DNA of 64,000 nt from Mustelus asterias (Eukaryota), in contig NW_027590578.1 of the NCBI RefSeq assembly GCF_964213995.1, positions 1-64,000 on the forward strand, in the 5' to 3' direction. The notes beneath the pieces were generated by a model, which worked only from the letters and a program-made list of their open reading frames with translations, did no database searches and was not told where the DNA came from. This document shows, in pieces, positions 18,220 to 61,297 of the stretch (its first letter is position 1; each line of letters starts with the position of its first letter). The translations under genes and the position numbers were made by a program.

Positions 18220-18545
18220 CACTGCGCGTGCGCCGCGATGACACCCACCGCCGGCGGCCATCTTGCGTTGCCAAGGGAGACGGCCAGCGGCCATATTCCC
18301 GTTGCCAAGGGAGACGGCGGCGACCATCTTGAGTTGCCAGGGGAGACGGCATCGATGCGGCGGCGTCCGCGCGCGCTGACCTCTGGGAGCATTCCCGTCC
18401 CGCACATGCGCACAGGCCGTCCCGCCCCCTCGACAAGTCCCCCTGTTGTCCCGCCAACGAGCATGGGGCCGGGCCGGAGTGGGCAAGAGGTGACACTGGG
18501 GAGGAGCAGCCCCCCCCCGGGAGCGTTACAGCGACGCCTGGTGGC
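18220..18545. promoter_or_regulatory. CpG-rich promoter-like island with 3x (YY1-like + RFX X-box-like) unit
   Basis: High CpG; GCGGCCATCTT/GCGGCCATATT/GCGACCATCTT each followed by GTTGCCA(A/G)GGGAGAC at 18267, 18301 and 18333; CGCACATGCGCA NRF1-like. Confidence 0.65.
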
Positions 18546-19448: not shown

Positions 19449-19871
19449 ATGGAAGGAAATAGCACCGTTCACAGTGAAGAGAAACTGTACACGTGTTCTG
19501 TGTGTGGACAAGACTTCAACCAATCATCCAGCCTTTCGGAACATAATTGCAGTCACAACAGGGAGAAGCTGTGGAAATGTGGGGACTGTGGGAAGGGATT
19601 CGATTACCCTTCCCAGCTGGAGATTCATCGGCGCAGTCACAGCAGGGAGAGACCATTCACCTGCTCCCAGTGTGGGAAGGGATTCACTCAGTCAAACAGC
19701 TTACATATACACCAGAGAACTCACACTGAGGAGAGACCATTCACCTGCTCCCAGTGTGGGAAGGGATTCATTACCTCATCCCATCTGCTGAAACATCGGC
19801 GAATCCACACTGGAGAGAGGCCGTTCACTTGCTGTGTGTGTGGGAAGAGATTCACTCAGTCTTCAAACCTC
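19449..19871 (+). pseudogene. Truncated C2H2 zinc-finger gene exon (4 fingers plus a partial fifth)
   Basis: CxxC...HxxxH fingers with (T/S)xE(R/K)P linkers; fifth finger breaks at TQSSNL and runs into a repeat. Confidence 0.8.
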
Positions 19872-35757: not shown

Positions 35758-37895
35758 CCAGACTGGGAGTTCCGGTTAGTGATCAGCAGAGGGCGCTCCC
35801 ACACTGATAAACAGAATTAATTATTTTGTCTCGACAGTGATAGTCACAGGGTCATAAACAAAATATCAAAACAAAACACAACACTCAACACGAACGGCTG
35901 AGCCACAGTTGAATTTTTAACTTGCAACTATACTAAAAATACATTTACAGTTCCTTAACTCACGCTTCAACCTTTGATGACATTTTCTTGCCTGTGTGAA
36001 TTATTGTGCAGCAGTTTCCCCATCTTCACTCTCCTTTTCAAGGTCTCTTTGATCAAAGGGTCTATTTGATCAGAGTATTTTGCTGCCTAAGGGACAGCTT
36101 ATATTGGCATATACATTTCGCAAGGTTATCATTGTGCTATTTAAAACAATCACTGAGAACAGGTTGCCATCAATGTTCATTCTCATTTTGAATGTCTGTC
36201 AAATGTTTTCTGACACAATTCACAACCCAGTGTTTCTCTGTTTCAATAATCAGACCAGCGACTTCATTCCCACCCCTGGCCCTAACAATATAGCGATTTT
36301 CCTCACAAGCACACTGATTATATCTCAGCTTGGGTTATTTCTGCTCACTGGAAGCCAGGTCTCCAGCTTCAGGGCTAAAAACACCACTGCGACACATGTT
36401 TTCTTTATTTCAAAAATATACTTTATTCACAAAAAATAAACTCTCCAATAAAACATTGCAAAATGACAGATCCAAAGGTCATAAACAGTGCAAAGAAGAA
36501 TCATTTTTACAGTACAATACCGTGCTCATTTACAAAAACATTACATTTTGTTACATTTCATTTCTTAAAACTATATACATGTGTCAGAGTTTACTGTGTG
36601 CCGTTATTTTTCAGGTTGGCACACAGTTACTCAGGCCGAGGGTATTCTGCAGTTACCCGGCCCTCGGTCTGCCTCGGTTGAGACGGGGTGGGGAGGGGGA
36701 ACTTCAGATAGGCAATTGTGGAATAAACACATTTAAAGTAATTTCCCTATCGTGATTTCAACCTAAAGTTTAAACACACTCCGATATGATTGATTCGGGT
36801 TTGAACCTGTATTTCAGATCTGAGTCATGGAAATTATGTCACTTACTTATTGTCCTCAAATGATGAGACAGAAACAGAAGTAGTTTTTTTTACAAGTTTC
36901 AACTATGATATTGCAAGGATTGTCTTTGTTTTATTCTGGAACTCACTGATCAATATCAGCTTTATGATATTGAACTGCGCTCGCAGGGAGTCTTACTCAT
37001 GTTTGCAGACAATCGTGAAACAAACAACAGCAACAGCACCGGTCAGGCAGCCAAACCTCTCCATCTCCAGCTGGAGAAATTGGACTCTGAAGAGTTGATC
37101 AGAATAAGGGCTCACTTACGGAATTTATGATGGAAACCAATCCAACCCCGCACTTTGCATTGTCTTCGGGAGCTCCTGTCTGTCGGATTGTAAAATAGTA
37201 ATTGCTTAACGTTGCAAAGCCAATGCAGAGAGCGGACTGGCCAAGCCAGAATCCATCTCCTAATTGCCCCCAAAACCAATTCAAATTGAATCTAATTCAT
37301 GATCCTCGCAAAAAATCCAAGCTGACATGAAAGAGCATCGCACCTGATCTTGGACTCTATTTGATGCTTGATTCGAGCCCAAAGACCGAGGTGCCTGCTT
37401 TCTGTTTTAGTTATATCCAATCAAAAACCGAATTGGTCCACTCAAAGGTCGCTGCAAGAGAGACATTGCAGATCGAAGCTGACAACACAGGGCCCATTCT
37501 TCCAGTCTTGGGCTTGATTAACAACATCCTAGCTGATTGGAGTAGGTATTATATTCCTTCCTGTGCTTGACCTGAGCTTCATCTTAGAAAAAGGCCCAGA
37601 TGGCGTTTTATTAAAAATTGATTCAAAAGAAACCTCGATGTAACCTTATTGATTTCTATCAAGTGCAGGATTAGCAAATTACACTTGATATTAGACAAAG
37701 GCTAGAATCTGGATAGATACAGCCACTGTGAGCAGTGCTGTTCTCAGCCGCATAAAACACACACCCAGCGGGAACCACATTAACCTCGGACTCAACATTC
37801 ACCCATTTTTTTTTCCAGTCATGACCGAGAAAATTAACTGCAGAATCCGATCAGACCGGCAGATCCGTCATCAAATCAGTTTACAGGTTAAACCA

Positions 37896-38118
37896 GTTTC
37901 TGATCAGTTGTAAATTCCCACAAACTCAGGGCTGGAGATTCAGATCAGCTCCGGGAGAGATGTTTCTGTCCCTCAGACCAGACCCACTGACGTCAAAGGG
38001 CTGCATGGTGACGCCGCACATGGCCGCATTCTGACGTCACAGAGGCGGATACTCTGACGTCACAATGCGGGATGCTCTGACTCTTGCGCACGCTCCTCCC
38101 CCACACCCTATCGATGCT
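37896..38118 (+). promoter_or_regulatory. Inverted, orphan copy of the CRE-rich element upstream of family-B V genes
   Basis: Reverse complement of ~41518-42162 without the SINE; three TGACGTCA sites. Confidence 0.75.
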
Positions 38119-38385
38119 GTGTTTCCCTGTCACTGTAGAAAACACAGCAGCCAATTTGGACTCAGTGTGACATTTCATTCAGTAATATTGTAGTGTTCTG
38201 TCTGTTTCAGGAATTGTGATTGGTGAACAGATATCAAACAGGACATTTCTCTGCTCTTCTTGGAAACAGTGACCATGTGATGTGTCACCTCCAGCTGAGA
38301 GGGAACACGGTGCCCCCGATTGAACAGGTCACCGAGAGGCTGGCAGCTCTGACGGTGCAGCGTTCCCTGAGCACGGCACTGTCTC
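38119..38385 (-). mobile_element. Degenerate DeuSINE (SacSINE1/AmnSINE-like); copies at ~47907 and ~57770
   Basis: CTGCTCTTCTTGGAAACAGTG..GAGAGGG..GGTGCAGCGTTCCCTGAGCACGGCACTG resembles the reverse Deu domain (recalled consensus, not aligned). Confidence 0.55.
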
Positions 38386-41559: not shown

Positions 41560-41620
41560 GCATCCGGTATTGTGACGTCAGAACATCCGGCATTCTGACG
41601 TCAGAGCATCCGCGTCATTG
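41560..41620. promoter_or_regulatory. 23-bp CRE repeat, 2 TGACGTCA
   Basis: GAACATCCGGCATTCTGACGTCA unit, ~230 bp upstream of the V-B1 ATG. Confidence 0.7.
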
Positions 41621-50592: not shown

Positions 50593-50631
50593 GGTTTTTG
50601 TACGGCCCTGTACGGTCTTTGCTAGACTGTG
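50593..50631 (-). other. 23-RSS of inverted V
   Basis: CACAGTC-23-ACAAAAACC. Confidence 0.93.
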
Positions 50632-51134
50632 CCTCCATCGCACAGAAATAGGTGGCGGTGTCTGTCAGCCGAGCTTCACTAACATTCAGAACGCTGTGGT
50701 TCTCTGAGAAACTGTACTGAGCCGTGATCCTGCCCTGATCGCTGGTACCGCTCACCAGGTGCTGCACGGTTCTGTCTGGATTTTGTCTGTACCATTGAAG
50801 GAGCTGTCCAGTTACTGTGGTTGAACAGTTCAACGATGCAGTGGCTCCCTCGGTAACAACCACTGACTCCGGAGACTGTGATAGCTCTTCACTGCCAGCG
50901 GCATCTGGGAAGAATATGTACATTTGCAGTAAGAACATATCGTACTATAATGTAGCACAATAAAGTACCATTGTATTCACAATTCGAGATGACACAATAA
51001 AGCTGAGTACAATTTAACAGAACATAACATTGCTGAGGTGTGAAATATTGCTGTCAGAAATAGTGACCACACTTACACTGAGGGAACAGTAAGGAATCCA
51101 GGAAAATAATCACCAAAGTGAAGCTCAGAAACAT
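50632..51134 (-). CDS. TRAV: Inverted TCR V segment, family B copy 2 (leader 51134-51077, V exon 50904-50632)
   Basis: Same architecture as copy 1; CDR1 STTVTGQLLQ. Confidence 0.9.
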
Positions 51135-51347
51135 GTTGGATCCTATCGGCTTGTGTGAAACAGCTGTCAGCAGATCCCAGGCTGAGAGAAGCTCCTGGGA
51201 AAGCAATGCTATTGGATATCAAACCGAGCCCCAAACCAGTCACAGAGTGTCGGTGAGAGCCGGGTCTCTGGGACTTGTGATCACAAAGTGAATCAGTGAG
51301 GGAGCTTCAGCATTGATAGTGCGGGGGAGGAGAGTGCGCATGCGACA

Positions 51348-51475
51348 GAACATCCGGTATTGTGACGTCAGAACATCCGGCATTCTGACGTCAGAACATC
51401 CGGCATTCTGACGTCAGAACATCCGGCATTCTGACGTCAGAACATCCGGCATTCTGACGTCAGAGCATCCGCGGC
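51348..51475. promoter_or_regulatory. 23-bp CRE repeat, 5 TGACGTCA
   Basis: TGACGTCA at 51363, 51386, 51409, 51432 and 51455. Confidence 0.8.
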
Positions 51476-53039
51476 ATTGGAACCTCATAGAATCATAGAA
51501 TGCCTACAGTGCAGAAGGAGACCATTCGGCCCATTGAACCCGCACCGACCACAGCCCCACCCAGACCCTCTCCCCGTAACCTCACATCTTTACCCCGCGA
51601 ATCCCGCTGACAGGAGGGAGCAATTCAACATGGCCAGTCAACTTAACCCGCACATCTTGGGACTGTGGGAGGAAACCGGAGCACCCGGAGGAAACCCACG
51701 CAGACACGGGGAGAACATCCAAACTCCAGACAGACAGTGACCCGAGGCTGGAATCGAACCGGGGGCGCTGTGAGGCAGCTGTGCTAACCACTGTGGCACC
51801 GTGCCGCCCAACGTCAGACGTCAGAACATCGTGTATTGTGACGTCGGAATGCGGATATGTGTGGCGTCAGAATGTGTGACGTCACCCTGTAGCCCATGTG
51901 ACGTCACTGTGAATTGCGAGTGACGTCAGTGGGTCTGGATTGTGGGTCAGAGACATCTCTCCTGGAGCTGATCTGAATATTCAGCCCTGAGTTGATGGGA
52001 ATTAACAGCTGATCTGAAACATCTCTCCCGGAGCTGATGTGAATATCCAGCTGTGAGGTTGCGGAATTAAGATCTAATCAGAAGCAGGGAGGTCCTGCCT
52101 TCATGTGGGCCAGTGGTACAAGCAACACCGGGATCCACAGCCAAGGCTTATGAGAAAAAGCTCTGTTTTGAAACAAATATAAGGAAGATTTTGCTAATAC
52201 AGGTCTCCCAGTAGAATCTATCTACCAGTTAAGCTTCCTTTTCTGCTTCCCATAAATTGTTTATTCCTTTAAAACCAAGGTTTGATGTTCAGGTCAACTC
52301 CGGGAAAGTGTTTCCGCCGGCAGAACTTTGGAAAACACAAGCGTCTACTTTAGGAGGGGAGAGTGCAATGGAAAGATTAGATTAATTGATTACTCTCCGA
52401 TTTGTTAAACTTGGAAGGTGGTCATCGGATCCCTACAGTGCAAAAGGAGGCCATTCGGCCCATCAAGTCTGCACCGACTATTGTCGAGGCCCTATCCCTG
52501 CGGTGTCTAAAGAGATGGCGGAAGAAGAGATAATAGTAAGTTTTAGAAGGAAATGAGAGATAAGTTGAAAGCAGAAAAATGTCCGTGACTGTGAGAGATT
52601 CGAGGTTTGAAAGATGAATTGAAGAAATCTGTCAACTCTGAAATCTGTTAGGCAAAGATACCATGGGCCGAGTGGCCACATCTCCTGCATTGATACGCTA
52701 TGTTTCTATTTTGTTCATGTCCCTGGCCCCGTAATGCCCCTCCCTCTCTATTTCTTCTCAGTCACTTGGATAGTGAGCAGGTGCAGAATGGTGACAGATT
52801 CCGGAGATGGAAGTCTCGCTATTTCTGTTCCGGGTGCAGCTGAAGCTGCCGCACACTCCACTCAATATTTTGTCTACTGCATCCCCGCCCACGACTTCCG
52901 TTTTCTGCTCTCGTGATTGGACGGATTGCTGCCGCTGCTCCATTCCTCTCATTGGTTGGATCAGCAGTGCAGTGGAACAGTGTCTTTCTGTCTCTGACAG
53001 GATTTCACTCATTGCAGAGTTACAGACTCAGGAAGCATC

Positions 53040-53537
53040 ATGGTGAACTATCTCACTCCGATCCTCATCATTCTCTCACTTCTCAGTAAGCATTTTCTTC
53101 CCAGTAAAACTACAAGCTCCTCCTGACTGCTGTAACCCAGATATTCTTGTTGATAAAACAATAGTGATGATGATAATTGTATCGTTTAATCTGAGGCTAA
53201 CTCTGATTGTCATATTGCTGTTGTTTCTGTTAGAATGGAGCCACCAAGACGAAGTGGAACAATTGGATCCTGGAATAAAGGTTAAAGAGGAAAATGATGT
53301 CACACTAACCTGCGCTTTGAAAACAAGCGATTCCAACCCTTATGTGTACTGGTACAGTCAGCAGCCCGGGAAAGCTCCAGTGTACATGTTTAAGCTTATT
53401 GGAGAGAATGTACAAAGGAACACCGACCTCAATGATCGGTTTTCTTCCAAATTTGATAAAAAGAACAAGACTAGCGAGCTAACGATCAGTAACACACTGA
53501 TTTCCGACAGCGCCGGGTACTTCTGTGCCATGAAGCC
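53040..53537 (+). CDS. TRAV: TCR V segment, family C copy 2 (leader 53040-53085, V exon 53234-53537)
   Basis: As copy 1; CDR2 region NVQRNTDL. Confidence 0.9.
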
Positions 53538-53577
53538 CACACTGCTGCAGAGATATAGCGAATCCCGTACAAAAACC
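53538..53577 (+). other. RSS with 24-bp spacer
   Basis: CACACTG-24-ACAAAAACC. Confidence 0.9.
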
Positions 53578-61002: not shown

Positions 61003-61215
61003 GTTGGATCCTATCGGCTTGTGTGAAACAGCTGTCAGCAGATCCCAGGCTGAGAGAAGCTCCTGGGAAAGCAATGCTATTGGATATCAAACCGAGCCCC
61101 AAACCAGTCACAGAGTGTCGGTGAGAGCCGGGTCGCTGGGACTTGTGATCACAAAGTGAATCAGTGAGGGAGCTTCAGCATTGATAGTGCGGGGGAGGAG
61201 AGTGCGCATGCGACA

Positions 61216-61297
61216 GAACATCCGGTATTGTGACGTCAGAACATCCGGCATTGTGACGTCAGAACATCCGGCATTCTGACGTCAGAGCATCCGCGTC
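61216..61297. promoter_or_regulatory. 23-bp CRE repeat, 3 TGACGTCA
   Basis: TGACGTCA at 61231, 61254 and 61277. Confidence 0.75.

Follow-up and report, generated by a model that had tools for sequence, protein, structure and literature searches.

Three closely similar V genes at the start of a contig of Mustelus asterias (NW_027590578.1, assembly GCF_964213995.1) carry different numbers of a palindromic CRE site, TGACGTCA, upstream of their start codons. The question raised by this locus is whether the array is a promoter element and whether the number of its copies influences how often each V gene is used. The window, as the term is used here, is the whole stretch of DNA that was analysed, i.e. 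the first 64,000 nucleotides of the contig. CREs in T-cell receptor (TCR) V promoters and variable repeats (VNTRs) in promoters are both already known; in the open-access literature we came across neither shark TCR V promoters nor a V promoter element that consists of a CRE minisatellite. A test set is provided by about 17 V genes with 96-99% identity and between 0 and 8 CREs, and a tandem group of three of them stands at the J-proximal end of what looks like a complete locus. Were usage set by copy number, slippage would act on the germline TCR repertoire as a heritable control, and the genes would form a natural 0-to-8 dose series for the question whether V promoter strength biases the repertoire; if copy number were without effect, the array would be an ordinary unstable repeat in a promoter. 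The reading that we favour, with moderate confidence, is that of an old CRE minisatellite of one V family, family B, which would likely be a CREB/ATF-bound activator; its copy number would have come to vary between two and eight by unequal exchange or slippage and would affect V usage little.

From position 38119 onward the window is built of a 9.85-kb unit with V genes of three families, present about 2.6 times in tandem at 96-97% identity. The family-B genes have a leader, an intron and a V-set exon with C, W and YxC in an open frame, as V segments do, and all three copies in the window (3/3) end in a 23-RSS of the form CACAGTC/G-23-ACAAAAACC. Most of the top matches of the family-B V exon in the PDB were TCR alpha chains, and protein searches with the family-B V returned one relative of 95 aa and no named or full-length relative. 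Further along the same contig (C546), ZNF genes at 64-104 kb lie between the V cluster and the D/J/C region, D-like segments with a 12-RSS lie near 121 kb (C546:120800-240500, L076-L088), 139 J-like motifs, which were found with a plain 12-RSS pattern and gave no match to a stricter J pattern, occupy 137.6-236.9 kb, and a C1-set constant exon is located near 240 kb. The V genes are in cis with the 12-RSS J segments and the constant exon, and a stretch of 200 N near 129.5 kb falls between the V genes and the J array. A Pfam search for the TCR alpha constant domain (PF09291) gave no match, and the controls were likewise matchless. We infer that the three family-B genes of the window stand at the J-proximal end of the V genes in a TCR alpha/delta locus that looks complete, the alpha label being taken from the layout; judged from its strand, family B would join J by inversion. 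This arrangement fits that of the elasmobranch TCR alpha/delta V field (PMC12227049), where alpha/delta-type V exons likewise occur both in the translocon and scattered nearby; the section of that paper on the V field offers nothing on promoters or repeats. The features around the array of the second gene, with their counterparts elsewhere in the window, are collected in Table 1.

Table 1. Coordinates of the family-B promoter arrays and neighbouring features in the window (units 1 to 3 are the successive 9.85-kb copies).
Feature	Positions	Strand	Basis or remark
Family-B leader exon, unit 2, ATG 51134, GTAAGT donor	51077..51134	-	
Family-B V exon, TCR V-alpha-like, open frame	50632..50904	-	
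23-RSS, CACAGTC-23-ACAAAAACC	50593..50631	-	
TGCGCATGCG beside the G-rich box GGGGGAGGAG	51335..51344	-	sequence
Proximal CRE minisatellite, unit 2, five 23-bp repeats, perfect cores 51363, 51386, 51409, 51432, 51455	51346..51471	-	window scan and TRF
SINE, presumably tRNA-type, inside one repeat of the minisatellite	51486..51810	-	further copies dispersed over window and loci
Distal degenerate half of the minisatellite, 21-23-bp repeats, perfect cores 51877, 51899, 51921	51811..51928	-	
Divergent family-A V gene, ATG 53040, 1.58 kb from array	53040..53544	+	
Proximal array, unit 1, perfect cores 41573, 41596; ATG 41344; distal cores 42018, 42040	41561..41612	-	
Proximal array, unit 3, perfect cores 61231, 61254, 61277; ATG 61002; distal cores 61699, 61721	61214..61293	-	
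Orphan SINE-free promoter of B2 type, family B, 3 perfect cores	37860..38119	+	overlooked by the initial annotation

Two features of the V genes themselves, and one of the J region, were observed on the way. Between W and YxC, the V domains of family B lack about 8-10 residues relative to those of families A, C and E, the shortening falling in the CDR2/C'' region. The RSS of the family-A V gene (window 53538-53577) reads CACACTG and has a spacer of 24 bp, not 23. A second J-alpha-like array lies at C71:18368000-18387999 (L090, L091), with a perfect 12-RSS the same as that at C546:140421 and with diverged J sequences; it is either a duplicated TCR alpha J region or another haplotype.

The initial annotation had reported two, five and three perfect CREs about 230 bp upstream of the three family-B genes, and a scan of the 64-kb window bore out both the counts and the distance, the nearest core lying 229 bp upstream of each of the three minus-strand start codons. 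The sites are repeated head-to-tail with a period of 23 bp (2.3, 5.5 and 3.5 copies in units 1, 2 and 3 by TRF, with 97% matches in unit 2), which lies within the 10-60 bp of a minisatellite unit. Perfect TGACGTCA sites number 22 in the window against 0.68 +/- 0.80 expected, a number reached in 0 of 100 shuffles, and 20 of the 22 fall in four family-B promoter elements. One of these four is an orphan promoter, whose own V gene was replaced at the 38119 duplication breakpoint and which is 98% identical to a copy (C2521) that still carries its V gene. The adjoining TGCGCATGCG, which we take to be NRF1-like, is present as had been stated; its portion TGCGCAC is retained in most family-B sub-clades, and the full motif is lost in B2. 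Two further statements held in part. The 14-bp palindrome TTCTGACGTCAGAA exists, but just three copies occur in the window, all of them in unit 2, and the additional CREs noted beyond the SINE are real, but instead of being separate elements they are the other half of a minisatellite that the SINE has split.

A genome-wide search for the repeat unit, proposed at the outset with the concern that the element might be a dispersed repeat unrelated to V genes, assigned it to V promoters and removed that concern. In the 3.68 Gb there are 24 occurrences of the exact 23-mer, distributed over 10 arrays and nine contigs, and each one is upstream of a family-B gene. About 55 family-B-like exons were recovered by protein search at an identity of at least 63%, and a perfect CRE was found within 900 bp upstream of 51 of 54 family-B V exons and of none of the 45 exons from families A, C, D and E, counts which represent paralogs rather than independent events and which leave out the duplicates L014-L018, matches below 55% identity and flanks shorter than 900 bp. 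A composite of the CRE and TGCGCAC at a distance of 15-21 bp gave 51 matches genome-wide and one in the control; by-eye comparison placed 50 of the 51 upstream of family-B leaders and identified the remaining one as the orphan promoter of the window. Two V-less remnants, on C71 and C138, derive from the DNA upstream of family-B genes. A motif borne on a dispersed SINE or MITE was rejected, as copies unrelated to V genes were not found (40 of 89 candidates were scored in one search). The association with the family is one of single origin and not of repeated recruitment. On C5 (L069, 136.134 Mb), an unrelated 22-bp minisatellite contains 58 perfect TGACGTCA cores.

The history of the repeat can be followed through the sub-clades of family B, for which a tree was used for grouping only, being badly rooted by the V-less row C387b and leaving out C3978 and four duplicate loci. 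Because SINE-free sub-clades, at 63-75% protein identity, keep the same 23-bp register in their five to nine degenerate repeats, the minisatellite is as old as family B, and the 23-bp repeat evidently predates the split of the family into sub-clades. In sub-clade B1 the SINE lies inside one repeat, leaving two proximal repeats, with the rest moved about 330 bp away, and two proximal repeat positions are present in 11 of 11 older B1 copies. Other sub-clades carry different insertions, at least three independent insertions into the element overall. The SINE evidently entered one repeat in the B1 ancestor, and re-expansion of the second repeat evidently took place only in the youngest, most amplified B1 clade. 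Two intact family-B genes have had their upstream DNA exchanged. At L052 (C3978) a GC-rich 15-bp satellite takes the place of the entire upstream promoter and reaches to within about 25 bp of the ATG, and at L046 (C386) the promoter is cut just upstream of GCGCATGCG and joined to a family-E V exon, leaving it CRE-less.

In the youngest clade the 17 arrays hold two (three arrays), three (six), four (three), five (two), six (one) or eight (two) copies, a range of paralogs within one assembly in which some small contigs could be alleles. The claim of a variable copy number is thereby upheld, with two to eight copies among 17 near-identical genes, tandem paralogs included; one further gene of this clade has lost its array by rearrangement. 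Across the 136 pairs, which are 0.8-4.5% apart (mean 2.5%), copy number is the same in 21, and the difference in copy number is unrelated to sequence distance (Spearman -0.09, p 0.29). Whole-unit losses are also seen in the distal half and in B2. The pattern is that of an unstable minisatellite among fresh segmental duplicates, and unequal exchange or slippage would most likely account for the differences in copy number, which would change V usage little.

Whether the array is maintained as a functional element was judged from its conservation. The proximal cores of the young clade are perfect in 68 of 68 cases, with spacers carrying five to seven variants (chance 0.05-0.12), variable columns amount to 5 of 24 in distal cores vs 0 of 16 in proximal cores of the same clade (p 0.07), and damaged proximal cores within B1 belong to broken genes only (the C91 pair and C325); each of these hints of selection is non-significant, and they are confounded by recent homogenisation and by the longer branches of broken genes. 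A perfect core is located at -229 to -231 in most sub-clades. At least two perfect CREs lie within 1.5 kb of 38 of the 44 intact genes (39 selected by script and five added by hand, of 57 leaders), and the six with none or one include the whole of sub-clade B3a, three genes with one CRE each. Conservation of the CRE over five deep lineages does not exceed background (longest invariant run 6, shuffle p 0.81), the intact B5 has a 2-bp deletion in its proximal core, and the identity of the promoter (0.76) is not above that of the intron (0.78). An 11-bp block, invariant in a smaller alignment bar one broken gene, was discarded as a sign of deep conservation, which was gone once B5 had been added. 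We regard the array as a likely CREB/ATF-bound upstream activator of family-B V promoters.

The retention of CpGs in the array had been read as a sign of low germline methylation. The array has a ratio of observed to expected CpG of 1.29, compared with 0.49 for the proximal promoter and 0.51 for the window between 14 and 64 kb. Transitions at CpGs in the young clade affect 0 of 42 positions in the proximal promoter, intron and V exon vs 10 of 78 in the flanks (p 0.014), which lends weak support to that proposal, but overall variation is low as well, since non-CpG positions differ in the same direction (11 of 274 vs 26 of 301, p 0.027), and older clades carry the cores TGATGTCA and TGACATCA, which are decay products. 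The CpG-rich array is accounted for by recent homogenisation as well as by low methylation.

Known systems resemble the family-B array in different respects. In promoter VNTRs of the TYMS, INS and MAOA types the repeat unit carries a transcription-factor site, and the present array is like them in being a tandem unit with a factor motif, present in variable copies upstream of a gene; unlike in those VNTRs, the variation here is among paralogs of one assembly and the target is a rearranging V segment. Mammalian TRBV promoters are reportedly characterised by a CRE/decamer motif (Anderson 1988). Family B shares with them the TGA-NN-TCA core upstream of a TCR V gene and its restriction to some subgroups; for TRBV, the account in PMC2685407 gives a CRE motif in 57 (42.6%) bovine promoters and in many human and mouse ones, and CRE-less genes are still expressed. 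The TRBV site is, according to that account, a single one about 80-120 bp upstream of a V-beta gene, an arrangement that was not encountered in family B, whose genes are of alpha/delta type with the first site at -229 and two to eight perfect sites in tandem, the product of a minisatellite. The likeness between the two is likely convergence. The homotypic CRE arrays of Davis et al. (10.1101/625434), as described there, likewise contain several consensus CREs, at a spacing of 17 bp vs 15 bp here, but they are synthetic, forskolin-induced and placed within 150 bp of a minimal promoter, whereas the family-B array is natural and lies further from the ATG.

Three other explanations were weighed against the preferred one. 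The initial annotation had put forward a repeat-number rheostat on germline transcription and V usage. Worked out further, this would mean that re-expansion, after the SINE had moved the distal CREs by about 330 bp, would tune germline transcription, RSS accessibility and hence individual V usage, and the hypermutable minisatellite would be a tuning knob for the promoter strength and rearrangement frequency of near-identical V genes. We consider this improbable. It would fit the confinement of expansion to SINE-split copies, the lack of contraction to one unit by slippage in any of the 28 SINE-split arrays (17 young, 11 older), the perfect proximal cores, and family-B genes that are intact and J-linked. 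Against it, copy number is uncorrelated with relatedness, as in any unstable minisatellite, intact genes such as those of B3a are CRE-poor, new copies are added on the far side of the array and no excess conservation is seen. Reports disagree on whether promoter strength determines V usage. A TRBV promoter is reportedly required for efficient rearrangement (Ryu 2004), whereas VH promoter strength is reported not to be correlated with rearrangement (Love 2000). Fetal V-gamma choice is described as independent of promoter and germline transcription (PMC2292229), and V-kappa promoters as mostly similar in strength (PMC6146092). Somatic mutation of TCR alpha in sharks (PMC5931798) would blur the assignment of rearranged sequences to single V copies. 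The massively parallel reporter assay (MPRA) of Davis et al. bears on both sides, as CRE number at the 17-bp spacing, near that of the present array, largely set expression, but non-linearly and with a plateau; the two proximal sites gave most of the effect (about 43% of the variance), activity fell beyond about 120 bp from the promoter, and no gain was cited in the absence of stimulation (10.1101/625434).

The opposite proposal, that the minisatellite merely contains TGACGTCA, has no function and was inherited with the family-B cassette by segmental duplication, the real promoter being the 200 bp by the ATG, is in our view rather unlikely. The want of excess conservation over the deep lineages, the independent insertions into the element in different sub-clades, intact genes without any CRE (C386b, C3978), unrelated minisatellites with the same core elsewhere, such as that on C5, and a family association explained by a single origin would all be compatible with it, but the perfect core at a fixed position in most sub-clades, the contrast between invariant proximal and variable distal cores, and the retention of at least two perfect CREs in most intact genes argue for a functional element. 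Multiple perfect CREs next to GC and CCAAT motifs are, moreover, expected to be bound when unmethylated. That the promoter is shared bidirectionally with the divergent family-A gene, or borrowed from a ZNF housekeeping gene or an snRNA gene, appears very improbable. Of 48 family-B copies, 12 have a divergent A gene as their upstream neighbour, 14 have an E gene on the same strand and two have another neighbour, while nine have none within 4.5 kb and 11 are unassigned. The family-A gene of the window has no CRE in its own 900-bp upstream region. Because of the 1.58 kb between array and A gene and the varying neighbour, shared control of A and B is unlikely, and the earlier suggestion of action on both divergent V genes was rejected, the upstream neighbour not being conserved. 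Nearby ZNF promoters also carry GCGCATGCG, but no DNA similarity to four 10-kb ZNF-region loci was detected, three of the four neighbouring ZNF loci have no CRE and the remaining 185 kb of the contig contain one, and a ZNF origin was rejected. An origin from a U2 promoter was rejected as well: older sub-clades have a U2-like head some hundreds of bp past the distal cores, but Rfam gave no U2 match at this place, and the U2-headed stretch is a dispersed repeat (2070 first-look candidates). In the window, this head, which resembles the 5' end of U2 snRNA, lies at about 37340-37400 on the minus strand, as part of an old dispersed repeat that is found upstream of the promoters of older family-B genes; a weak Rfam U2 match was found elsewhere in L035.

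Returning to the preferred reading, an old family-B repeat acting as a CREB/ATF-bound activator, we propose the following mechanism. The array is the gene-proximal end of the family-specific 23-bp minisatellite with its CRE core, and CREB/ATF dimers would bind the one or two sites nearest the gene, alongside factors at GCGCATGCG and at G-rich and CCAAT motifs. Further copies would be added distally, within -229 to -390 relative to the ATG, and, because they sit on this far side, would be expected to bring a small, saturating gain in transcription.

Several minor observations concern the surroundings. The initial 13.6 kb of the window are satellites, and a 33-bp triple repeat with GCCATCTT, presumably YY1-like, precedes a C2H2 zinc-finger exon by about 1.2 kb (window 18250-18350 and 19494-19854). 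A family-B V gene at L021 is closely followed, at 121-192 and 496-567, by two tRNA-like genes above the Rfam gathering score. Finally, 19 identical perfect 12-RSS, facing in both directions, are present at C8:50.18-51.08 Mb and likely mark an array of an immunoglobulin cluster.
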